From Planctomycetota bacterium (GTDB taxonomy: Bacteria; Planctomycetota; PLA2; JAEUHO01), in NCBI GenBank assembly GCA_965223505.1, contig CBDCWP010000001.1, positions 1 to 63,061 on the forward strand: a stretch of DNA of 63,061 nt, written 5' to 3'. Of the stretch, positions 47,989 to 60,863 are shown piece after piece (positions within the stretch are counted from its first letter, which is position 1; every line of letters starts with the position of its first letter). The translations under genes were made by a program, and so were the position numbers. The notes beneath the pieces were generated by a model. The model ran no database searches, had not been told where the DNA came from, and was given only the letters and a program-made list of their open reading frames with translations.

Positions 47989-50900
47989 CTACCCGGCGGC
48001 GACGGCTTCCTGGTACTCCGTCAGCCGCACCGCGACGCGCTTGCTCACGCCCGGCTCCTCCATCGTCACGCCGTACAGCACGTCCGCCGTCTCCATCGTG
48101 GCCTTCGCGTGGGTCACGATGAGGAACTGGCAGCGGTCGGTGAACTCCCCCACCAGGCTCACGAGCCGGCGCACGTTCGCCTCGTCGAGCGCCGCGTCGA
48201 CCTCGTCGAGAACCGAGAACGGGCTCGGCTTCGTCTTGAAGACCGCGAACAGCAGCGCCACCGCGGTCAGGGTGCGCTCGCCGCCGGAGAGCAAGCTGAT
48301 CGTGCGCTGCTCCTTGCCGGGCGGGCGCGCGACGATCTCGATGCCGGACTCGAGTACGTTCGAGGCGTCCTCGAGCACGATCTCCGCCCGTCCGCCGCCG
48401 AACAGACGGCGGAACGTCTCGCGGAAGTTCTCGCGGATGACCTCGAACACCTCGCCGAAGCGCTCCGTCGAGAGTTGGTCGAGCTCGTGAATGGCGCGCT
48501 CGAGGTCGCTCTTCGCCTGCAGCAGGTCCTTCTCCTGATTCTGCAGGAACGTGACGTGCTCTTCGACTTCCTCGAGCTCGGCGATCGCGTTGAGGTTCAC
48601 GTTGCCGAGCCCGGCGAGCTTGGTGCGCAGCGTATCGACCTCGGCGTCCATGGCACCGAGATCGATGTCTTCCGTCGCCTCGGTCTCCTGCGAGACGGCC
48701 GCGAGATCGAGGTCGTGATCCTGCCGCACCTGATCGAGCAGCGACTCGATGCGAACGCGGAATTCGGAGTCGCGCAGACGGAATGCCTCGAGCTCGCTTC
48801 GCAGCTGATCGTGAAGGTCCGCCACCTCGCGTTGCCGGCGATGGACGTCGCTCGTGGACGACTCGAGATCGTCGAGCACTTTCCGCGCCGCGACGAGGGC
48901 GTTGCCCGCCTGCTCACGCTCGGCTTCACGCTGGCGCATGGTCGCCTGGGCCTCGGTGACCTCGACCTCGGCCTTCGACATGCGCTGCGACAGCTCCTCC
49001 GCCTCTCGGTCCAAGCCGGCGGCGCGTTCCTCGAGCCCGCGCGCCTCTTCGTGCGCACGCTCGACGCGGCGGCGCGCCGCTTCGGCACGTGAACGCGCCT
49101 CGGCCTGCGCGAGGCGTACGTCCATGCGGTGTTCGGAGGCGCGCTTGCGCGCGGCGTCGATGGCGAGATAGCCGCGCGCGGCTTCCTCCGCCTTTTCCTC
49201 GAGCGACTCGCGCTCGGTCTCGAGCGCGGCGACGCGCGCGGCGACCTCTTCCGCCGATCGACGCGAGTCACCCAGAAGCCCGTTGAGCTCCGCGGTCTCC
49301 GCGCCCAGGACCTCGAGACTCTGCTCGACGTGCGCGCGTTCCTTCTCGACGCGCGCGAGCGCCTCGCCGCGCCGGCTCTTGTCCTCGGCGCGGTCGGCCA
49401 GCTCGGTCCGGAGGCGGCGAATCTCCTCGTCGCTCTGCTTGACGGCTTCGTCGGCGGCTTGCGCCTCGGCGCGCGCCTGGTCGGCTTCGCCCGAGAGGCG
49501 CTCCAGGTCCGCGCGCAGCGCGCGGATCTCGGCGGTGCGCTCCACGAGGCCCATCGAGTGCGCGTCCTGTCCACCCAGCACGGCGCCCGAGGTCGTGACC
49601 CGCTCGCCCGCCTCGGTCACGGCGTTGACGCCGCGCTCCCGAAACGCGCGAATGCCGGCCGACAGGTCGGGCACCAGCTCCGTGCCGTCGATGACCGAGC
49701 CGACGAGGCGCTCGATCAGGAAGTCGCATCCGAGTGGCGCGACCTCGGCGACGCGCTCCTCCGCGCCGGGTCGCACGAGGTCGAGGCAGAGGAACCGGGC
49801 CCGCGCACCCTTGCCGTGGTTGCGAAGCCACTGGATCCACGACAGCGCATCGTCCGCCGTCTGCACGACGAGCGCGCCGGCGGCGTGACCGAGCAGGCGA
49901 TCCAGCTTGACGGCCTTGTCCGGCGCCGGGCGCACGAGGTCGGCCAACAGGCCGAGCACGCCGCGGCGGCTTCCGTCACCGTCCGCCGCTTCGCCCGCAA
50001 GCTCTTCCATGACGAGCCGCGCGCCTTCGTCGACGCCTTCGTTCGCGGCCGCCAGACGCTGCAGGACCTCGAGCCGCGCGGCCTTCGTCGCGCGGGCTTC
50101 GGAGACCTCGGCGCGTTTCGCCGTCGCGGCCTCCGCCGCGCTCAACCGTTGCGCGCGGCGCTCCTCGGCCGCCTCGAGCGCCGCCGCGCGCTCGCGCGAT
50201 TCCGCCTCGAAGCTCGCTGCGAGCGCGTAGAGCTCGCGCGCCTCCGCTTCGATCTTCTCGCGCTGCACCTGCTGCTCGGCATGCTGCGCCGCCAAGCGCT
50301 GCAGACGTTCCTGCGCCTGCCGGATCTCCGCGCGGTACTCGGCTTCTTCGTTGCGCGCGTCGCCGATCCGGCCGAGCGCGTTCAGCGCTTCGCGTTTCGC
50401 GCCTTCGTGGGCGTCACGAATCGACGCGGCCTCGCGGTCGAGCCGCTCGAGCTCCTCGTCGGCACCGCGCACGCGCGCGTTCTGCTGCTCGGCCTCGCCG
50501 TCGGCGCGCGCGGCGTCTTCCTCGAGGCGCTTGACCTCGTCGCGAATCTCTTCGATGCGCGCACGCGCGACGCGCGCCTGCTCTCTGGCGCTCGCAACGC
50601 GTGCACGCAGGTCTTGGATGGTCATCGCGGCGTACTTGGCGCGGTCGTCGGCGGCGCGCGCGTCGGCGGCGGCGCCCGCGATCTGCGCTTCGACCTCGTG
50701 GACGGTCTCGCGCGCAGCCTCCCGCTCGGCGTCGGCCGTACGCACGCGTTCCTCGATGGACGCGAGCTCGTTCGCGGCCGCGGACTCCTTCTCGAGCACC
50801 GCGGCCATGCTGCTTTGCAGGGACTCGCGCTCCGCGGCGATCGAGCGATAGCGAACGACGGCGCGCAGGACACGCTTCTTCGACAGGTCCTCGCGCAGCG

Positions 50901-51549
50901 CCTGGTAGCGGCGAGCGCGCGAGGCCTGATTGCGCAACGACCGGAAGCGCTTCTCTTCCAGCTCCAACACGTCGCGCAGGCGTTCGAGGTTGTCCTGGGT
51001 GCGCCGCAGCCGCTGGTCGGCCTCCTTGCGGCGCTGCTTGTAGCGGCTGACGCCGGCGGCTTCCTCGAAGATGCCGCGCCGGTCGTGCGGGTTGGCGGCG
51101 AGCAGGGCGTCGATCTGCCCCTGCTCCATGATCGAGTTGCCCTCGTGCCCCAATCCCGTGTCGAGGAAGAGCTCGCGGATGTCGCGCAGGCGCGCGGTCT
51201 GGCCGTTGATGAGGTACTCGCTGTCCCCGGCGCGATGCAGGCGCCGCGTCACGGCGACCTCGGTGTGCTCGGTGGGCAGCAGGCCGTCTTCGTTGTCGAG
51301 GATGAGGGAGACCTCGGCCATGCCCAGGGCCTTGCGGGTCCGGGATCCGGCGAAGATCACGTCGTCCATGCGCTTGCCGCGCAGGCTGCGGGGACTCATG
51401 TCGCCGAGCACCCACTTGATGGCGTCGACGACGTTGCTCTTGCCGCAGCCGTTGGGACCGACGATGGCAGATACGCCTTCGCCGAACTCGAACACCGTTC
51501 GATCGGCAAAGGACTTGAACCCTTGCACTTCCAAGCGCCGGATCTTCAT
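47989..51549 (-). CDS. smc: chromosome segregation protein SMC
   Basis: GFKSF, GPNGCGKSN (Walker A), coiled coils, hinge, LSGGE signature, VLDEVDAALD (Walker B). Confidence 0.97.
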   Translation of the reverse strand: MKIRRLEVQGFKSFADRTVFEFGEGVSAIVGPNGCGKSNVVDAIKWVLGDMSPRSLRGKRMDDVIFAGSRTRKALGMAEVSLILDNEDGLLPTEHTEVAVTRRLHRAGDSEYLINGQTARLRDIRELFLDTGLGHEGNSIMEQGQIDALLAANPHDRRGIFEEAAGVSRYKQRRKEADQRLRRTQDNLERLRDVLELEEKRFRSLRNQASRARRYQALREDLSKKRVLRAVVRYRSIAAERESLQSSMAAVLEKESAAANELASIEERVRTADAEREAARETVHEVEAQIAGAAADARAADDRAKYAAMTIQDLRARVASAREQARVARARIEEIRDEVKRLEEDAARADGEAEQQNARVRGADEELERLDREAASIRDAHEGAKREALNALGRIGDARNEEAEYRAEIRQAQERLQRLAAQHAEQQVQREKIEAEARELYALAASFEAESRERAAALEAAEERRAQRLSAAEAATAKRAEVSEARATKAARLEVLQRLAAANEGVDEGARLVMEELAGEAADGDGSRRGVLGLLADLVRPAPDKAVKLDRLLGHAAGALVVQTADDALSWIQWLRNHGKGARARFLCLDLVRPGAEERVAEVAPLGCDFLIERLVGSVIDGTELVPDLSAGIRAFRERGVNAVTEAGERVTTSGAVLGGQDAHSMGLVERTAEIRALRADLERLSGEADQARAEAQAADEAVKQSDEEIRRLRTELADRAEDKSRRGEALARVEKERAHVEQSLEVLGAETAELNGLLGDSRRSAEEVAARVAALETERESLEEKAEEAARGYLAIDAARKRASEHRMDVRLAQAEARSRAEAARRRVERAHEEARGLEERAAGLDREAEELSQRMSKAEVEVTEAQATMRQREAEREQAGNALVAARKVLDDLESSTSDVHRRQREVADLHDQLRSELEAFRLRDSEFRVRIESLLDQVRQDHDLDLAAVSQETEATEDIDLGAMDAEVDTLRTKLAGLGNVNLNAIAELEEVEEHVTFLQNQEKDLLQAKSDLERAIHELDQLSTERFGEVFEVIRENFRETFRRLFGGGRAEIVLEDASNVLESGIEIVARPPGKEQRTISLLSGGERTLTAVALLFAVFKTKPSPFSVLDEVDAALDEANVRRLVSLVGEFTDRCQFLIVTHAKATMETADVLYGVTMEEPGVSKRVAVRLTEYQEAVAAG

Positions 51550-51653
51550 GAGGGGAGTACCGCCGGCCCGCTAAGGAATGAATCGTCGGCGCGGACGGCC
51601 GACTTGACGCCCTGCGGCTGCGCCACAGGGCAAAACAGAGCTGCGGGGTGCCT

Positions 51654-52165
51654 CATGCGGTCCCTCCGCCGACGCCCCGAGCCACGCGGAGGTGGCACGT
51701 CCGGGTGGCTTGCCACCCGGCGCGGAGGACGTCTGTGTCACCGACGCGCGGGGTCATGTGGTTCCTCCGCCGACGCTGCGGGCCACGCGGAGGTGGCACG
51801 TCCGGGTGGCTTGCCAGGTCATGTGGTTCCTCCGCCGACGCTGCGGGCCACGCGGAGGTGGCACGTCCGGGTGGCTTGCCACCCGGCGCGGAGGACGTCT
51901 ACGCCACCGACGCGCGGGGTCATTGGGCCCCTCCGCCGACGCTGCGGGCCACGCGGAGGTGGCACGTCCGGGTGGCTTGCCACCCGGCGCGGAGGACGTC
52001 TACGCCACCGACGCGCGGGGTCATTGGGCCCCTCCGCCGACGCTGCGGGCCACGCGGAGGTGGCACGTCCGGGTGGCTTGCCACCCGGCGCGGAGGACGT
52101 CTGCGCCACCGACGCGCGGGGTCATTGGGCCCCTCCGCCGACGCTGCGGGCCACGCGGAGGTGGC
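51654..52165. repeat. tandem array of a 101-bp palindromic unit (REPIN/BIME-like)
   Basis: CTCCGCCGACG anchors at 51664, 51765, 51830, 51931, 52032 and 52133 (period 101, one 65-bp deleted unit). Each full unit has CCGGGTGG-CTTG-CCACCCGG and CCTCCGC..GCGGAGG stems. Confidence 0.92.
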
Positions 52166-54389
52166 GCAGCGGCCATGGGGCGAGGGAGTATTCGAAGACG
52201 CGTGCATCGTGTTCCACGGTGTCGAACGATGATCGCAGGTCCTGCAGGGGCGGCCGGCGCTCCCCGTCGATTCGGTGCCGCACCCGCACGCGGCTGCGCT
52301 CTCCGCCGCTCGGGTCGGCGCAGATGGGCTCCCGGCGCACACCCAATCCCAGGTCGGGGCGGTACGTGGGGGCCTCGCCCTCGGCCCACCACGTGGACGT
52401 CTGGGGAAAGCGCTCGCGATCGATGCGCGCCAGCCGCGAAGCCGCCTCTTCGCTGACCGCTTCGACGACGACGGCGTTGATCCGGTGCGCGGTCGCCTCG
52501 TGCATGACGCGCTGCGCTGCGTGCGAGACGATGCGCGTTCGAAGCGCCGCACGGGCGGCCTCCGAGTCGGCCTTGTGCGGCGCGAGCAGGGTGACCGCCT
52601 GATCCACGCCGACCAGCTCGACCAGGTGGCATGCGCTCTCCAAGTCGACGAGCGGATGGGTGCCGCGGCAGAGCTCGTACAGCGCCCCACCGGGATCGTT
52701 GCAGACCCCCAGCAGAAGGCCGTGGCGAGCCGCGGCCGCCTCGACCGCAAGACCGGCCAGGCGCTCGACCTCGCGCATGAAGTCGTGCAGGCCCGCCTTG
52801 CGCGTGCGTAGCGCCGCGGCGACGAGGTTGACCGCGGTCGCGGAGGCGGCGGACACGTCGCCGCGATCGAACCGCAGCGGATCGAGGGCCTCGGACTCGG
52901 TGACACGGTGCCAGCGCGACCCACGCGAGGTCGTGGCGGCATCGTCCAGCACGATCACCGGCTCACCGGTCTGGGCGGCAGCGGTCAGCGCCTGGTTGAC
53001 CAGCGCGACCATGGCCGCGTCGCGGTCGCCGCGGCGAGGCACGAGAAGCGTGAGCGCGCACGGGACTTCGTGACCGTCGCGTCGAAGCGCGACCGCCTCG
53101 CGCAGGAACGCCCGCGTCACGCGCAGCGCGGCGTCGGCAAGATCGCCGTAGGTACGCCCGGGCGGTGAGGGCGGGGGCGTCTCGATCGAGCGCAGCCGCT
53201 CCGGCACCTCGGCCGAGAGCCCGAGCTCGACGGCCAGCAGGCCACCGCGCCGATGCCACGCGGCCAGGACCGGGCCGAGCAGGAGCTGGCGCACCTCCTC
53301 TCCCAGCGCGTCCTCGTCGAGGTGCGCCCAGAAGGGCGCGAGCAGGACGTTGACGTGCTCGAGCGCCAGCACGCGCGCGACGTGCGGCGCGTGCCGCAGC
53401 AGCACTTCTTCGAGGGCGCGCGTCACGCGGCGGATGCCGCCGCCGTGGGAGAAATGCTCACCGTCGAGATGCGCGCCGACGACGTTGGCCGCGTCGAGCC
53501 CGACGGCTGTGAGACGTAGCGGCGCGCCGAGGTCGTAGGCGTGCAGGTCGCCCACGCGTTGCGCCTCCGCCACCGCCGGGGGCAAGACGCCGTCGAGCAG
53601 ATGCCGCGCGATCATGCGCTCGCCCAGTCCGGCGGCCACGCTCGCCGGCGAGGTCGCACGCCGGTGCGTGAGCCCTTCTCGAAGCGCCCGGTCGATGTGG
53701 GACGCGGGCAGGCCGACGACCTCGCCGCGACCGATGGTCGAGGTGCGGCCGCGACGGAACATCTCGGTGCGCACGAGCGCGATCAGCAGGTCCTGCGAGA
53801 TCCGCGGCACGCCCGAGCTGAGAATCTGCTCTTCGACGCTGCGCGCGATGTCCTCGGCCTCGTTGCGATCGAGCCGGTCCTGACGTTCGAGCGCGTGCAC
53901 GATCTCGGCCTTCGACCAGCGGCGGGTGCCCGTACGCGAAGCCGCGCTCGTCGCGGCGTCGGCGACGTCCGGCTCACTCGCTTCGGGCAGCACCGACGCC
54001 GGCGAACCGGAGCCCACGAGGGGACGAACGGCGTCTTCTACGGCGCCCGGGACGTGGGCCTCGGCGCGGCGTCGCCGGGCCTGGGCGCGGCGGTCGCGAT
54101 AGAGGATGTACGACTTGGCGGTGCGCGCGTGGCCGGCCTCGATCAGCACGCGCTCGACGGTGTCCTGGACATCCTCGATGGTCGGGATCCAGAGCCGCGC
54201 GCGGGCGCTCTCGCCGCCCGGCGCCAGACGCTCCAGCTGGCTGGTCACGACACCGGCGAGCTCCTCGGCCAAGAAGCGGTCCTCGCCGCCGACCGACTGC
54301 GCGGCGCGGAAGATGGCCTCCGCGATCTTCTCTCGGTGGAAGGGCACGAGCCGGCCGTCCCGCTTTCGAACCTGTCGAATTCGCTTCAA
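52122..54389 (-). CDS. ATP-cone plus degenerate class III ribonucleotide reductase (NrdD)-like protein
   Basis: ATP cone (VRKRDGRLVPF..EKI...IEDVQDTVERVL...AKSYILYR); NrdD-like remnants GDLHAYDLG, VNL..AA, LVGVDQAV, RLARIDRERFP; no glycyl-radical or Zn motifs; start overlaps the nrdR stop. Confidence 0.8.
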   Translation of the reverse strand: MKRIRQVRKRDGRLVPFHREKIAEAIFRAAQSVGGEDRFLAEELAGVVTSQLERLAPGGESARARLWIPTIEDVQDTVERVLIEAGHARTAKSYILYRDRRAQARRRRAEAHVPGAVEDAVRPLVGSGSPASVLPEASEPDVADAATSAASRTGTRRWSKAEIVHALERQDRLDRNEAEDIARSVEEQILSSGVPRISQDLLIALVRTEMFRRGRTSTIGRGEVVGLPASHIDRALREGLTHRRATSPASVAAGLGERMIARHLLDGVLPPAVAEAQRVGDLHAYDLGAPLRLTAVGLDAANVVGAHLDGEHFSHGGGIRRVTRALEEVLLRHAPHVARVLALEHVNVLLAPFWAHLDEDALGEEVRQLLLGPVLAAWHRRGGLLAVELGLSAEVPERLRSIETPPPSPPGRTYGDLADAALRVTRAFLREAVALRRDGHEVPCALTLLVPRRGDRDAAMVALVNQALTAAAQTGEPVIVLDDAATTSRGSRWHRVTESEALDPLRFDRGDVSAASATAVNLVAAALRTRKAGLHDFMREVERLAGLAVEAAAARHGLLLGVCNDPGGALYELCRGTHPLVDLESACHLVELVGVDQAVTLLAPHKADSEAARAALRTRIVSHAAQRVMHEATAHRINAVVVEAVSEEAASRLARIDRERFPQTSTWWAEGEAPTYRPDLGLGVRREPICADPSGGERSRVRVRHRIDGERRPPLQDLRSSFDTVEHDARVFEYSLAPWPLRHLRVARSVGGGAQ

Positions 54390-54880
54390 CCCTTGCCCTT
54401 CTTGCGGCCCTTGGCGGACTTCTTCGAGCGGCGGGGCAGCATCGCTTTCAGCTCCTCCGCGAAATCCGTGATGTCCTCGAACTCCCGGTAGACCGAAGCG
54501 AAGCGGACGTACGCCACCTGGTCGACGTCGCGCAGTGCGTCCATCACCAGCTGGCCAATGTAGGAGACGGGGACCTCACTGTCGTACTTCTCGAGAACCT
54601 TGTTCTCGATGGCGGCCGTCGTGTCCTCCAGGACGGAGATCGGGATCGGACGCTTCTCGCACGCCTTGATGAGGCCGAGGAGGATCTTGCGGCGTTCGAA
54701 GGGCTCGCGCCGCTCGTCTTTCTTGATGACGCGCAGCGGGCTCTCTTCAATGCGCTCGTAGGTCGTGAAGCGGCGCTCGCAGGCCAGACACTCTCGACGG
54801 CGGCGGATGGCGAAGCCGTCGTTGCTGGCGCGCGAGTCGATGACCTTGTCATCGTCCTCTTTGCAGAACGGGCATCTCAC
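54386..54880 (-). CDS. nrdR: transcriptional repressor NrdR
   Basis: MRCPFC..DKVIDSR...IRRRREC..C..RFTTYE, ATP cone, DQVAYVRFASVYREF. Confidence 0.97.
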   Translation of the reverse strand: MRCPFCKEDDDKVIDSRASNDGFAIRRRRECLACERRFTTYERIEESPLRVIKKDERREPFERRKILLGLIKACEKRPIPISVLEDTTAAIENKVLEKYDSEVPVSYIGQLVMDALRDVDQVAYVRFASVYREFEDITDFAEELKAMLPRRSKKSAKGRKKGKG

Positions 54881-55041
54881 AGCCCAATCCTCGCGTCGAG
54901 CCCAAGCAAAGCCACCGCGTTCACCTGCCCTCCGGAGTCGACACGGAGCCGGAGGTCGGCAACGTGCTTACCGAACCTGCCGTCGGCCGCCCGCTCTCCC
55001 GCCGGGCCCCGCGACGCACGCCGCTCGTCCTGGAGGTCGAC

Positions 55042-55089
55042 CCCCAACACCTTGTGCCGACAAAACCCTACCACCCATACAGATGGTGT
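55042..55089. promoter_or_regulatory. tandem NrdR boxes upstream of nrdR
   Basis: CCCCAACACCTTGTGC (55042-55057) and CCCATACAGATGGTGT (55074-55089) resemble acaCwAtATaTwGtgt; 32 bp start to start. Confidence 0.65.
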
Positions 55090-55216: not shown

Positions 55217-55975
55217 TTGACCGTTGCCATCCTGGCCGACATCCACGCCAACATCGAAGCGCTGTCGACTGTCATGGACGACATGGCGCATCGGGGCATC
55301 AACCGGATCGTCTGCCTGGGCGACATCATCGGGTACGGGCCCAACCCGCGCGAGTGCCTGAAGTTGCTCTTCCCCTCCGAGGTCGCCATCATGGGCAACC
55401 ACGAGGAAGCGGTCATGTTCTACGGGGAGGACTTCAACCCGAAGGCACGGGCCTCCATCGAGTGGACGAAGGACCAGCTGAATTCCACGGAGTTCGAGCG
55501 GACCGAGAACTACGACATGTGGAACTTCCTCGGGACCATGCAGCAGGTCGTCGAGGACGGCGACGTCATGTACACGCACGGCAGCCCGCGGGTGCCCACG
55601 CGCGAGTACGTGGTTCCGGCGGACATCCGCAACCACGAGAAGATGCAGGGCATCTTCGATCTGATCACGAAGGTGTGTTTCATCGGGCACAGCCACATTC
55701 CGCACATCTACACGTCGGACATGAAGCACGCCTCGCCGGAGAAGCTGAACCACGCGATCGACCTGCGCAAGCTGGGGGATCGGAAGATCATCATCAACAC
55801 CGGCAGCGTGGGCCAGCCTCGCGACGGCGACCGTCGGCTGTCGTACGTGACGTTCGACGGCAACGTGGTCCGTTTCCACCGGCTCGAGTACGACGTCCAG
55901 ACGACGGTCGACAAGATCTACGCGGTCGACGAGATCCCGAACTTCCTGGCAGATCGGCTCCTAGTCGGCAGGTAG
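55217..55975 (+). CDS. metallophosphoesterase (calcineurin-like)
   Basis: DIHAN, LGDIIGYGP, GNHE, THGSP, GHSH, NTGSVGQPRD. Confidence 0.92.
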   Translation: MTVAILADIHANIEALSTVMDDMAHRGINRIVCLGDIIGYGPNPRECLKLLFPSEVAIMGNHEEAVMFYGEDFNPKARASIEWTKDQLNSTEFERTENYDMWNFLGTMQQVVEDGDVMYTHGSPRVPTREYVVPADIRNHEKMQGIFDLITKVCFIGHSHIPHIYTSDMKHASPEKLNHAIDLRKLGDRKIIINTGSVGQPRDGDRRLSYVTFDGNVVRFHRLEYDVQTTVDKIYAVDEIPNFLADRLLVGR

Positions 55976-56049
55976 CGAAGAAGACGCGGGGGGCCGGGCC
56001 GAGCGCGCCCTCCCACTGGCCCGGCGATGCACAGGCCGTCTCGGGCTTC

Positions 56050-56170
56050 CGGGAACACGGGATGCGGGACCCGGAATGCGGGAAACGGGACGTCCGACGG
56101 CAAGGTGGATCGACGCGTGAGGTGAGACGTCCCGTTTCCCTACTCCCGCGTCCCGTTTCCCGTCTCCCGT
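56050..56170. repeat. inverted pair of heptamer tandem-repeat tracts
   Basis: (nCGGGAn)-type heptamers at about 56050-56095 face (TCCCGnn) heptamers at about 56127-56170; GGGAAACGGGACGTC pairs perfectly with GACGTCCCGTTTCCC. Confidence 0.7.
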
Positions 56171-56276
56171 CTTCGGCCCCTTCGCGGCCCACGCCCCATC
56201 CCCCGTGAAAGAATCCAGGGGTTCCCCGCCGCGACCTAAACTCAACGGCTTCACCCCGGGTTTTGGGATCCGCCTG

Positions 56277-58247
56277 ATGGAACGCCGAATGCTGCTGGCC
56301 GTCGTCCTGTCGTTTCTGGCAGTGACGCTCTGGAGCTCGATCACGGGCCGCAGCTGCTTCGCTCCGCCGAAGAAGCCCGACGAAGACAACGGCAAGCCCG
56401 TCGAAGGCACCGAGAACCCCGACGATCCGCCCGCGGCGAACGGCGAACAACCGAAGGATCCGCCCAAGGACCCCAACGGCAACGGTGACGTTCCCGAACC
56501 GCCCCAGGACCCCGACGGCAACGGCGACGGCCCGGAACCGCGCAAGGACGATCCGATCGAGGACCATCCGCACAGCGGACTCGAGGTCGAGCGCGCGGTG
56601 CTCAAGTCCACCGAGCTCGAGGTCGGCTTCACTACGCTCGGCGGTTCCGTCGAGTACGTGCGGTTGCTGCGCCAGTTCGAGACCGACAAGGAGACGCCGC
56701 TGGACGTCATCGTCCCGGCGGACCCCTGGCACATGCTGGGACACGTCGACGACACGGCGCTCGTTCCGAGCGTGTCGCCCGGCGGCGCGGACCGCCGCGA
56801 CGAGCCGGCCGGCCCCATGCGCAAGCTCAACTGGCGCATCCAGAGCGTCAACGAGAAGGGGATCGTCTTCTTCTGGGAAGCGAACGGCGTGCGGCTCACC
56901 AAGCGCTGGACGATGCCGGTCGGCGAGGACCAGTTTGCGCTGAAACTCACGCTTTCCGGCAAGGCGACGTCCGGCGACGCCAAGGCGCTCGACGTCAAAG
57001 TCCTCGTCAGCGGCAACCAGTTCCGCGAAGAGGTCCAGGGCATGGACATGTTCCAGGGCACGCGCGCCGTCGTGCGGCTCTCGAACCAGGGCGAGGTCTC
57101 CGAGGACTTCCACTTCGGCATCCCCGTCGAAGAGCTCACGCTCGGCGGCGTCGACAACCCGCGCCTGCGCATGCTCGGCTCGCGCTCGCTCTACTACATG
57201 GTCGCCTACTACCGGGAGGCCGGTGAGCCCGAGCCGCCCATCACGCGCGCCTGGATCACGGGTGAGGACGCCTCCCAGCGGCCGACGATGGAGGAGAACG
57301 TCAAGGCGTTCTTCGAGCAGCGCGGCCGCGCGATCGAGGGGGACAGCCGCGACGAGGCGCTGGCGCTGCGGCTCAAGCGCAGCGTGGCCCAGGCGCACCA
57401 CGCGTGGGTGGTCGTGCAGCTGCCGCTCGACGAGAAGCCGGTCGAGCTGCCGATCTACGTCGGGCCGATGTCGCGCGGCGTCCTCGCGCAGGAGTCGTAC
57501 CGCGAGCTCGAGCCGACGATCACGTTCCCGTTCTCGTTCGACATCGTCGCGAAGGCGCTGATCGGCATCTACGACATCTGGCTGAGCCTCTTCGGCAGCG
57601 CGGGTCTGGCGGTGATCCTGATGACGCTGGTCGTACGCGGGCTGATGATGCCGCTCTCCATCCGCAACCAGCTCTCGATGCGCAAGTACAGCCGCAAGGT
57701 CGCCAAGCTCAAGCCCAAGCTCGCCGCGCTGCAGCAGAAGTTCGGGAAGAACCCCAAGAAGATGCGCGAAGAGCAGATGAAGCTCTACCGCGAACACGGC
57801 ATCGGCTTCCCCGGCGGCTGCTTGATGATGCTGCTGCAGATTCCGATCTGGTTCGCGCTGTTCAGCTCGCTGCGGCGCGAGTTCACGCTGCGCGGCGCGT
57901 CGTTCCTGTGGATCGACGACCTGTCCGGTCCCGACAAGCTGATCGAGCTCGGTACCAACATCAATCTCATGGTGTTGCAGCTCAGCTCCATCAACCTGCT
58001 GCCGCTGCTCATGGTGACGCTGTCGATCATCCACACGCGCTCGATGCCGAAGCCGCAGGACGAGCAGACGGCGCAGCAGTACAAGATGATGAAGTGGATG
58101 CCGATCATCTTCGCCGTCATCCTGTACAACTACACCGCGGCGCTGATGCTCTACATGGTGCTCAGCTCCGCGTTCGGCATCCTCGAAGCGAAGATCGTCC
58201 GCGTCAAGGACGAGAGCGCGGCGGACGCCGCCCCGGCGCCCGCCTGA
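56277..58247 (+). CDS. yidC: membrane protein insertase YidC
   Basis: N-terminal TM, large periplasmic domain, YVGP, GLAVILMTLVVR...PL, MKLYREHG...GGCL..LLQIPIWFAL, FLWIDDLSGPD. Confidence 0.95.
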   Translation: MERRMLLAVVLSFLAVTLWSSITGRSCFAPPKKPDEDNGKPVEGTENPDDPPAANGEQPKDPPKDPNGNGDVPEPPQDPDGNGDGPEPRKDDPIEDHPHSGLEVERAVLKSTELEVGFTTLGGSVEYVRLLRQFETDKETPLDVIVPADPWHMLGHVDDTALVPSVSPGGADRRDEPAGPMRKLNWRIQSVNEKGIVFFWEANGVRLTKRWTMPVGEDQFALKLTLSGKATSGDAKALDVKVLVSGNQFREEVQGMDMFQGTRAVVRLSNQGEVSEDFHFGIPVEELTLGGVDNPRLRMLGSRSLYYMVAYYREAGEPEPPITRAWITGEDASQRPTMEENVKAFFEQRGRAIEGDSRDEALALRLKRSVAQAHHAWVVVQLPLDEKPVELPIYVGPMSRGVLAQESYRELEPTITFPFSFDIVAKALIGIYDIWLSLFGSAGLAVILMTLVVRGLMMPLSIRNQLSMRKYSRKVAKLKPKLAALQQKFGKNPKKMREEQMKLYREHGIGFPGGCLMMLLQIPIWFALFSSLRREFTLRGASFLWIDDLSGPDKLIELGTNINLMVLQLSSINLLPLLMVTLSIIHTRSMPKPQDEQTAQQYKMMKWMPIIFAVILYNYTAALMLYMVLSSAFGILEAKIVRVKDESAADAAPAPA

Positions 58248-58289
58248 CGCGGCGCGTAACCGCCGGCCACCGTCGCGCGATGTCGGCGC

Positions 58290-58988
58290 GTGCAACGACT
58301 TCCCTTCCACCGCCACACGAACGGCCAGTCGGGTAGCCGGCCGAGCGATCTCGAGCTCCGGGACGCCCTCGGCATGGGCGGCCCCGGTGCGCTGACGGAC
58401 CGCGAGCTGCTCTCCATCCTCATCAACAGCACGGACGTGCTGCGTGCCGAGGGGTTGCTTCGCAAGTACGGCTCGCTGCGTGCCCTGGCGCGGGCCAGCG
58501 TGCACGAGCTGCAGTCCGGCGTCGGCAGGCTGGGACCGGTGACGTCGCTGCGCGTCGTCGCCGCGTTCGCGCTCGGGCGCCGGGTTCGCACCGAACGACT
58601 GCCGAGGGGTCGGACGCTCAAGTCGAGCGGCCAGATCTTCGAGTACTTCCACGAACGGCTGCGCGACCTGAAGAAGGAGCGCTTCATCACGGTGCTGCTG
58701 GACGGCAAGAACCGCGTGATGCGCGAGGACCGGGTCTCGGAGGGCATCCTCACGGCGAGCCTGGTCCATCCGCGCGAGGTCTTCTCGCCGGCGATCCGGG
58801 AAGCGGCTGCGGGCATCGTGTTGATCCACAACCACCCGTCGGGCGATCCGGAGCCGAGTCCGGAGGACCTCGAGGTCACGCAGCGGTTGTGCGCGGTCGG
58901 CGAGCTCGTCGGGATCCGCGTGTTGGATCACCTCGTCATCGGCGACGGGCGCTACGTGTCGTTCCTGGAGCGGGGGCTATTGGACTGA
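58290..58988 (+). CDS. radC: RadC (JAB/MPN domain) protein
   Basis: ALTDRELL, KERF, SLVHPREVF, HNHPSGDPEPSPED, VLDHLVIG. Confidence 0.95.
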   Translation: MQRLPFHRHTNGQSGSRPSDLELRDALGMGGPGALTDRELLSILINSTDVLRAEGLLRKYGSLRALARASVHELQSGVGRLGPVTSLRVVAAFALGRRVRTERLPRGRTLKSSGQIFEYFHERLRDLKKERFITVLLDGKNRVMREDRVSEGILTASLVHPREVFSPAIREAAAGIVLIHNHPSGDPEPSPEDLEVTQRLCAVGELVGIRVLDHLVIGDGRYVSFLERGLLD

Positions 58989-59465: not shown

Positions 59466-60863
59466 GGCAGAGCAACGTTCTTTCTGTAAATCGCTGAGCG
59501 GTTGATCAAGCGTCGTCCCTCGGCAAGTACCTCCGTCCGGTTTCCCATTCCTCGCTGATCTCGATGAGCACCGCGCTCGCAAGCCGCAGCAAGGACGCTT
59601 CGTTTGGAAAGAGTCCGGCAACACGCGTGCGCCGCCGGATCTGTTGATTCAGGTTTTCGAGGCTGTTGGTGGTGCGCAGGCGCTTGCGTTGCGCCTCGTT
59701 GAGGCCATGGTCGAACACGGTGAATCCCTGCGAGATGTTCTCCTCGGCCCAACGCGCCAAGTCGGGCGCGGGCTTGTCCCACTTCTTTACGAAGGCCTCG
59801 AGCTTCTCTTGAGCCTCGCGCCGCGACGTCGCGTTGAACGCGGCGCGAAGATCAGCGGCGACGTCGCGTCGAAGCTTCTGACGCGGCACGTAAGCTTGTG
59901 CGTTCTGCTGCAGGTGGAACTGGCAGCGCTGCCAGGCGACGCCGGCGAAGCGGGCAGCGAGCGCGGCGGCCAAGCCCTTGTGGCCGTCGCTGGTGATGAG
60001 CTCGACGCCATGCAGTCCGCGGTCCTGGAGCGAGCTGAGGAACTCGCGCCAGTGAACCTCGGCTTCCGAAAGGCTCACGCTCGTTCCCAGCACGCTGCGC
60101 CTGCCGTCGTGGCCGATGCCGATGGCGATGAGCAGCGCGCAGTCGCGCACCGATCCGCCGTGGCGCACCTTCTCGTAGCGGGCATCGAGCACGAGGTACT
60201 TGAATGCCCCGAGCGGCCGTGTGCGCCAACGCGAAAGCTCCTCATCGAGCAGCGCAGCTGCTCGCGACACGCTCGTGGAGCTGATTTCAAGGCCGTTGCA
60301 AAGCACCTTCGTAATCTCCTCGACACGGCGCGTCGAAACACCCTGGACGTACATCTCCGCCAAAGCCAGCGTGAGCGCTCTCTCGCTTCGCTGGCCGCGT
60401 TCAAGGCTCGATGGGTAAAACGCATCGCCGCCCTCGACGTCGCGCACCTGAGGCACCTGTACGTCGATCTCGCCTAGGCGCGTGCGAACGCGCTTGGGCT
60501 TGAACCCGTTGGCGTACCCGCGACGCTGCTCGCTGCGCTCGTGCGGTTCAGCGCCGAGGAAGGCACTGCGTTCGATTCTCATGGACTCGTTGATCAGCAC
60601 TCGCATCGCCTCGGCCATGCCGTCGAATCCGCTCTCGCTGAGCGCTTCCAGGGCGTCGGCCCACGGCGTACGCTGTTCGTGGTGGGTCACGTCGATCTCC
60701 AATGCAAGTTGTCGTAGACCTGCAAAGGTACGGCGTTGATCCGCCACTCAGTTGACCCCGGGAGATGGCGGCGCGCCCGCTTCGCTTGAATCAGCTAGCT
60801 GATTCAAGCGAAGCGAGCGCCTCTCCTCCGGGGAGCCATTTACAGAAAGAACGGTACACCCTC
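59466..60863 (-). mobile_element. IS256-family insertion sequence, 1398 bp
   Basis: Imperfect terminal inverted repeats GGCAGAGCAACGTTCTTTCTGTAAAT and (reverse complement) GAGGGTGTACCGTTCTTTCTGTAAAT around an intact transposase; no target duplication. Confidence 0.92.
59506..60690 (-). CDS. IS256 (mutator) DDE transposase
   Basis: YANG, EMYVQGVSTRRV, LDARYEKVR, ITSDGHKGL, WQRCQFH, RTTNSLENLN, FPNEASLLRL. GGAG RBS before GTG 60690; the ORF track extends to 60747. Confidence 0.95.
   Translation of the reverse strand: MTHHEQRTPWADALEALSESGFDGMAEAMRVLINESMRIERSAFLGAEPHERSEQRRGYANGFKPKRVRTRLGEIDVQVPQVRDVEGGDAFYPSSLERGQRSERALTLALAEMYVQGVSTRRVEEITKVLCNGLEISSTSVSRAAALLDEELSRWRTRPLGAFKYLVLDARYEKVRHGGSVRDCALLIAIGIGHDGRRSVLGTSVSLSEAEVHWREFLSSLQDRGLHGVELITSDGHKGLAAALAARFAGVAWQRCQFHLQQNAQAYVPRQKLRRDVAADLRAAFNATSRREAQEKLEAFVKKWDKPAPDLARWAEENISQGFTVFDHGLNEAQRKRLRTTNSLENLNQQIRRRTRVAGLFPNEASLLRLASAVLIEISEEWETGRRYLPRDDA

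Follow-up and report, generated by a model that had tools for sequence, protein, structure and literature searches.

The closest described relatives of the gene considered here are the class III ribonucleotide reductases (RNRs; NrdD). In these enzymes the thiyl-radical Cys lies in a finger loop of the MGCR or MCCR type (PMC9669993), and the P. copri enzyme carries its radical glycine at Gly711, together with the NxN flap and HxHD triphosphate motif of NrdD (PMC11226230). In RNRs with several ATP-cones, the inner cones drift from the nucleotide-binding form (PMC9669993), and in cone-bearing NrdB the cone is carried by a noncatalytic subunit and acts from there (PMC5794259). The repressor NrdR assembles by cone-cone contacts (PMC9110341), and its regulon is marked by two 16-bp boxes 31 to 32 bp apart at the promoter (PMC12051234). 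The betaherpesvirus R1 homologues UL45 of human cytomegalovirus and M45 of murine cytomegalovirus are inactive and have been retained for protein binding (PMC5469499). The subject of this study is an open reading frame, here termed X, that directly follows nrdR in a 63,061-nucleotide stretch of DNA (the window) from a Planctomycetota bacterium (contig CBDCWP010000001.1). X is, very probably, a catalytically dead class III RNR (pseudo-NrdD) maintained by selection, and the data point to an enzyme turned regulator that has been kept behind nrdR in many uncultured Planctomycetota.

X resembles the class III enzymes of known structure (P. copri 8P2S, S. thermophilus 9D3X, T. maritima 4CON, and T4 1H78) in its barrel fold, its N-terminal cone, and the first His and Asp of HxHD. 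It differs from them in lacking the β-A Cys, the finger-loop Cys, the NxN flap, the Zn finger, and the glycyl loop, in evolving faster, and in having two cones; no activase was found for it. X is colinear, at ~30% identity, with its nearest intact relatives, which are the two-cone NrdDs of Brocadiia and further Planctomycetota. With NrdR it shares an ATP-cone sensor domain and the operon, but it has a 490-residue barrel and no Zn ribbon or other DNA-binding domain. Like UL45 and M45, X is an RNR catalytic subunit stripped of its catalytic residues; the viral proteins derive from class I and target host signaling, whereas X is cellular, derives from class III, keeps its cones, and lies in an RNR regulatory locus. 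Cone-bearing NrdB and the multi-cone RNRs are parts of active enzymes, unlike X, whose inner cone is among its best-kept parts after the loss of catalysis. No description of a dead bacterial class III reductase was found in the literature searched, which left most subscription journals outside; supplements of RNR phylogenies could hold such proteins. The only dead RNR members found described are viral, although RNRs are among the best-studied enzyme families.

Loss of catalysis and retention of the fold

The catalytic sites were examined in a core alignment of 20 complete members of the window's family (window included) and one intact relative. In the wider set, rows were labeled dead when they had no CCR motif (seven were judged by eye), and the other sites were therefore checked independently. 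The original prediction had read X as lacking the Cys that follows HxHDL, the finger-loop Cys, the C-terminal Zn site, and the RxxGY glycyl-radical loop, and the alignment bore this out at every site. VYCSSH of the intact relative corresponds to RLTAVG in X (A295), and a β-A Cys was found in 0/20 window-family rows and in 0/76 dead rows of the wider set, against 28/28 intact rows. LAACCRL is replaced by SRGSRWH (S491/R492), with neither finger-loop Cys present in any of the 20 rows. X is colinear with the intact relative as far as the last barrel strand (QLTISP versus EYSLAP), after which all 20 members stop behind W-P-R-R; the Zn finger and RxxGY loop are absent because the chain terminates directly after that strand. 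The radical Gly was missing from all 20 rows; in the wider set it was present in 0/76 dead rows, compared with 24/28 intact ones. No window-family member (0/20) has the NxN flap. Pfam places a Zn ribbon in NrdR only, and X is devoid of any CxxC; several members of the family contain not a single Cys. What remains of the triphosphate motif is HAYD, in which the first His and Asp are retained (H283 and D286), and these two residues and R652 are invariant in the window's family. That family also has a conserved finger loop of its own, R-G-x-R-W-x-R. Among dead forms generally the loop is family specific and often deleted.

A 101-bp tandem repeat array overlaps the 3' end of X, and truncation by this array had been raised as an alternative origin of the short C terminus. 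Truncation was ruled out, as 20/20 aligned members, repeat-free relatives included, end at the same barrel strand; the array does, nonetheless, supply the last ~14 residues, which take the place of the short variable tail only.

In the genome as a whole, X was the single NrdD-like match, and an intact-looking class II NrdJ without an ATP-cone was present as a separate RNR. An nrdG, reported as lacking near X, was not found anywhere in the 92%-complete genome, in which TIGR02491 gave no match and TIGR02495 none above its cut-off. An activase hidden Markov model (HMM) was also built, but from four sequences that are possibly not all NrdG, and the failure to find NrdG therefore rests on the TIGR family searches. 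Neither a glycyl-radical domain nor a split C-terminal piece was found in the same genome, an HMM of 49 intact C termini had no match at E ≤ 1 in its six frames, and the RxxGY pattern occurred in its DNA at chance level (90 matches versus 96 in controls).

The loss of catalysis was not accompanied by loss of the fold. The reading frame is uninterrupted, as had been noted, and an AlphaFold2 model from a 73-row alignment reached a mean predicted local distance difference test (pLDDT) score of 89.4. All top structural matches (Foldseek, VIA) were class III RNRs, with Z scores of 26 to 27 and a root mean square deviation (rmsd) of ~3 Å over 434 to 461 residues in cone-free matches. Residues 246 to 738 of the model superposed on P. 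copri NrdD 120 to 675 with Z 26.5 and an rmsd of 3.0 Å over 436 residues, a span that comprises the barrel minus the glycyl domain. The barrel called decayed in the original prediction thus appears, in the model, to retain the 10-stranded α/β architecture of class III RNRs. At the sequence level it gives a weak Pfam NRDD match (residues 251 to 664, E 1e-9), and X scores 31 bits against NCBIfam NrdD, for which the cut-off is 326.

Cone 1 matched Pfam ATP-cone with E 1e-21 and 77.7 bits, and X has 17/17 signature positions, these having been chosen from the intact consensus and not from a superposition. Across the dead forms, at least 15/17 positions were kept in 36/76, and at most 11/17 in 32/76, so that nucleotide sensing by cone 1 is, to judge from these residues, not universal in the wider family. 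The weaker second cone was recognizable in 55/71 dead-form copies at E ≤ 0.1, the window's own copy giving no Pfam match at that threshold. As a profile, cone 2 matched the NrdR cone (88%, E 3e-6), and eight of its positions are conserved at ≥90% across 71 dead forms; its sequence had no match in the PDB below E 0.79. In the 65 dead forms outside the window's family, conservation of ≥55% is concentrated in the two cones and in helix α-A, the first barrel helix, and a G-x-P-x-x-D segment and structural barrel residues are likewise conserved. The mean top-residue frequency was 0.53 to 0.54 in the cones and 0.19 to 0.28 in the barrel, the latter value being lowered by misalignment. A fast alignment of all matches misplaced the finger loops of distant rows and was used as a survey only.

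Distribution, selection, and descent

X was matched in 27/28 genomes of the same family and 11/11 of the sister family, and its named relatives are Planctomycetota. A full NrdD, sought in close relatives, was not found above cut-off in 40 genomes of the order. In 80 loci compared (62 intact type and 18 dead, overlapping partly with the genomes of the family searches), nrdR was upstream in 80/80. A radical S-adenosylmethionine motif lay within 2.5 kb downstream in 41/62 intact-type loci but in 0/18 dead loci. Of 301 genomes of the phylum that were searched with a profile, 237 gave a match, in some cases through other cones. Sixty loci were examined, picked among the listed matches with intermediate scores, and 58 of these were dead. 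The arrangement of nrdR followed by a Cys/Gly-less NrdD thus recurs in relatives, with nrdR directly upstream in 53/58 dead loci, and smc followed X in 48/58 within the DNA fetched. In these loci nrdR overlaps or nearly abuts X, and smc is often ≤260 nt from X or overlaps it. In total, at least 34 families of Planctomycetota carry dead forms, for the most part in the order nrdR-X-smc.

Several stages of erosion were represented. One family (f81) keeps the Zn finger and reads RIADY, with no finger Cys; in a single genome (L338) all that is left, with nrdR and smc on either side, is a lone cone; and at six loci nrdR stands beside smc with X lost. Separately, in one single-contig genome (G047), two tandem cone matches lie in a short frame at G047:C1:1124376-1124996, and in that genome neither nrdR nor, at E 1e-30, a class I/II barrel was found. 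Database entries name X members "ATP cone domain-containing protein" or active reductase. The mislabeling of many of these genes as active anaerobic reductases can mislead genome-based inference of anaerobic growth.

Purifying selection was evident in all pairs of dead forms compared, with Nei-Gojobori ω values of 0.14 to 0.52 in 12/12 pairs and 0.12 to 0.53 for the barrel alone, next to 0.03 to 0.26 for five intact pairs; the method is crude, G+C is high, and some pairs are near saturation. With no catalytic Cys or Gly in the alignment, no above-cut-off NrdD in the 40 genomes of the order, and selection acting on the protein, the reading of X as a repurposed pseudoenzyme therefore stands.

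Family groupings of the X tree reappeared in a tree of NrdR and the SMC head, which fits vertical descent. The split of intact from dead forms in the X tree may reflect long-branch attraction. A second dead clade (L246 to L314), obtained from profile-free matches, joined an intact enzyme that carries the name WOR-3 (98). Its members are two-cone dead NrdDs with an acidic N-terminal extension, E-G-x-F-D-A-Q-L-S-F. A single origin of all dead forms was rejected (approximately unbiased test, P = 2.5e-8, on a quick tree with a plain model and run after the tree had been seen), and for the dead forms of Planctomycetota one common origin was not rejected (P = 0.42). On these trees, the second clade is of independent origin. 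Similar clusters are listed in the Atlas, where they come from Planctomycetota and Hydrogenedentota. Two loci of the second clade (L265 and L266) have an additional NrdD-like match, at 29%, ~3 kb upstream. A cellular pseudo-reductase spread over at least 34 families and remade in a second lineage implies an unexplored noncatalytic role of class III enzymes.

X in the NrdR circuit and alternative roles

The role that we favor, at a probability of about one in two, is that of a noncatalytic, cone-presenting regulator or partner within the NrdR circuit. X would descend vertically from a two-cone NrdD that stood behind nrdR in anaerobic Planctomycetota. Lineages turning to class I/II reductases would have lost its radical chemistry and retained the protein for a second, noncatalytic job. 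X may dimerize through its barrel like NrdD, thereby displaying four cones, and cone 1 in the window's genome probably binds ATP/dATP. By cone-cone contact, X could then tune NrdR, either by sequestering it or by setting its dATP threshold, and with NrdR the output of the genes that carry its boxes, nrdJ for example. Where the nucleotide residues of cone 1 have been lost, X might act as a constitutive partner. This proposal draws on the conservation centered on the cones and first barrel helix, the coupling to nrdR, the lone-cone remnant, and an association of cone 1 with a preceding nrdR. For the second lineage, among intact enzymes with 1.5 kb of upstream DNA, nrdR preceded 18/21 that matched from cone 1 and 0/8 that matched from cone 2 only, the enzymes compared being kin and not independent. 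Also in favor of the proposal are the assembly of NrdR by cone-cone contacts (PMC9110341), the box pair upstream of nrdJ described below, and two nrdR-less single-contig genomes of a genus in which the only X inspected has 2/17 signature positions at cone 1. More tentatively, two-cone NrdDs may in general hold a second job as direct NrdR partners, one that survived the loss of catalysis at least twice in bacteria. If true, there would be widespread pseudo-reductase coregulators, an enzyme scaffold reporting nucleotide status to its own repressor, and with it an undescribed layer of deoxynucleoside triphosphate (dNTP) control. NrdR and X are two small-to-medium soluble proteins, which makes the question testable.

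Several observations weigh against this role. The linkage to nrdR was inherited from an intact ancestor (80/80 loci) and therefore is no proof of partnership, and in the second clade nrdR lies upstream in only 7/27 loci. X is also found with nrdR unlinked (family f53) or undetected (G047, G109, G063, and G212), and many genomes have NrdR but no X. Cone 1 is eroded in the 32/76 dead forms given above. No NrdR-X fusion was seen in 150 NrdR frames. In three window-family pairs the barrel gave ω values of 0.12 to 0.13 and the cones 0.19 to 0.26; the barrel is constrained like the cones or more, and a cone-only role therefore leaves it unexplained.

Other roles were considered. X might regulate a working reductase in trans, giving the cone-less NrdJ dATP-dependent activity control by binding, much as cones are known to have been relocated to another subunit where the catalytic subunit has none (PMC5794259). 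Class I/II reductases are indeed present in 72/74 X-bearing genomes (one genome has an above-cut-off NrdD elsewhere and another an NrdD split over two contigs). The partners are of several types, however, and some bear a cone of their own, at least four among the sequences read (L209, L210, L212, and L213; by eye, first 110 residues). X adjoined no class I/II gene in the compared loci, where the queries were the window's neighbors, and NrdJ as a query had no match at the second-lineage loci, leaving this role unlikely though not negligible. It is also unlikely that X serves as a stand-alone dNTP sensor or buffer signaling elsewhere, for example to SMC and the chromosome cycle, through its cones and a remnant specificity site. 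The frequent smc neighbor and the few genomes that keep X without nrdR would suit such a role, as would a putative specificity-site Glu in 13/20 and a loop-2 Arg in 11/20 window-family members, sites placed from the motif spacing in PMC11226230. Yet the Glu occurs in only 21/65 dead forms outside the family, smc was not found near the second dead clade in 80 loci, and the smc link belongs to the operon, because nrdR-smc adjacency outlasts the loss of X (six loci) and smc stands behind many intact nrdD genes too.

The strongly constrained barrel, with its family-specific finger loop and the invariant H283, D286, and R652, would fit a newly acquired nonradical ligand-binding or catalytic activity, at least in the window's family; as the loop varies between families or is deleted, and no new polar active-site residue common to the dead forms was seen, we regard this as quite improbable. 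Long branches, family-specific erosion, and the graded stages (near-intact in f81, then a lone cone, then loss) might be taken as signs of a relic in slow decay, one whose frame stays open only to keep smc coupled within the operon or which the repeats have truncated. That reading is already contradicted by the ω values, by open frames of about 470 to 820 amino acids (aa) in 34 families, by the confident predicted fold, by the existence of direct nrdR-smc junctions, and by the repeat-free relatives that end at the same place, and it is very improbable. An active split or atypical reductase, with the radical domain supplied in trans, is hardly credible: the barrel and part of the triphosphate site persist, but the finger loop has no thiyl-radical Cys, family members may be Cys free, and the genome yielded neither a glycyl domain nor NrdG. 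A partner role in the NrdR circuit remains the reading that we prefer.

NrdR boxes and organization of the locus

The predicted pair of NrdR boxes upstream of the operon was located exactly as described, 32 bp apart, but the sites are weak. A regular expression proved too loose by itself. A matrix built on 72 intact-locus boxes gives the pair a total of 8.6 bits, and a score of ≥8 is reached at 160 of 10.3 million pair positions genome-wide. Support for the boxes comes from their position, because the same register was the best pair in 12/17 window-family loci (≥10 bits in only three). A sigma-70 scan found no promoter; the −35-like and −10-like elements were judged by eye. A much stronger pair, of 17.9 bits and 31-bp spacing, lies at G000:C24:118844-118890 (G000 being the genome that carries the window), about 500 nt upstream of the cone-less nrdJ, and only eight genome positions reach 17 bits. 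Given these scores, nrdJ is likely to be under NrdR control; for the nrdR-X operon such control is no more than plausible. The two top-scoring pairs of the genome (G000:C30:227374 and C20:34539) precede genes that resemble those for glycyl-tRNA synthetase/a sigma factor and D-Ala-D-Ala ligase, and may be promoter-like chance matches.

The features of the locus are collected in Table 1. The nrdR neighbor encodes a full-length NrdR, and the predicted overlap of its stop with the start of X was confirmed, the TTG start sharing 4 nt with the nrdR TGA region.

Table 1. Features of the nrdR-X locus, in window coordinates
Feature	Position	Strand	Basis or remark
nrdR, 164 aa	54386..54880	−	Zn ribbon and ATP-cone repressor; TIGR00244 195.7 bits, cut-off 124.65; Pfam
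X, dead two-cone class III RNR (pseudo-NrdD), 755 aa	52122..54389	−	Very probable; Pfam, alignment, predicted model, structural matches
ATP-cone 1, residues 6-102	54084..54374	−	Pfam; agrees with intact relatives at 17/17 signature positions
Cone 2, about residues 153-216	53742..53933	−	Degenerate cap, conserved helical surface
α/β barrel, residues 246-738	52176..53654	−	Superposes on P. copri NrdD 120-675
Ala295, where the β-A Cys is expected	53505..53507	−	Alignment
Finger loop T-S-R-G-S-R-W replacing A-C-C-R	52905..52934	−	Alignment
Weak NrdR-box-like site 1	55074..55089	−	1.5 bits; position conserved; between conserved −35-like and −10-like elements
NrdR-box-like site 2	55042..55057	−	7.1 bits; 32 bp from site 1; position conserved
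101-bp tandem repeat array	51653..52165	.	Private to the locus; provides the final ~14 codons of X and its stop
smc-like gene	47989..51549	−	Named from Walker A motif and coiled-coil layout only; conserved downstream neighbor

The array consists of 3.3 near-identical 101-bp copies and partial ones, with a 16-bp near-palindromic core. The repeat had no other occurrence in the genome, and its folding showed nothing unusual (z −1.4). It stretches the gap between X and smc to 572 nt, compared with 81 to 244 nt in relatives, and may be a recent local expansion. Upstream of nrdR, a block at 55217-58988 holds genes that, by their motifs, are metallophosphoesterase-like, yidC-like, and radC-like. This block is kept together with nrdR-X-smc in the window's family, and an IS256-like transposase lies beyond it at 59506-60747. 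Another cone in the genome (L067, G000:C39 near 169520) is borne by a P-loop kinase that, judged by its motifs, resembles 2-phosphoglycerate kinase and whose gene is followed by a phosphoglycerate-mutase-like gene.

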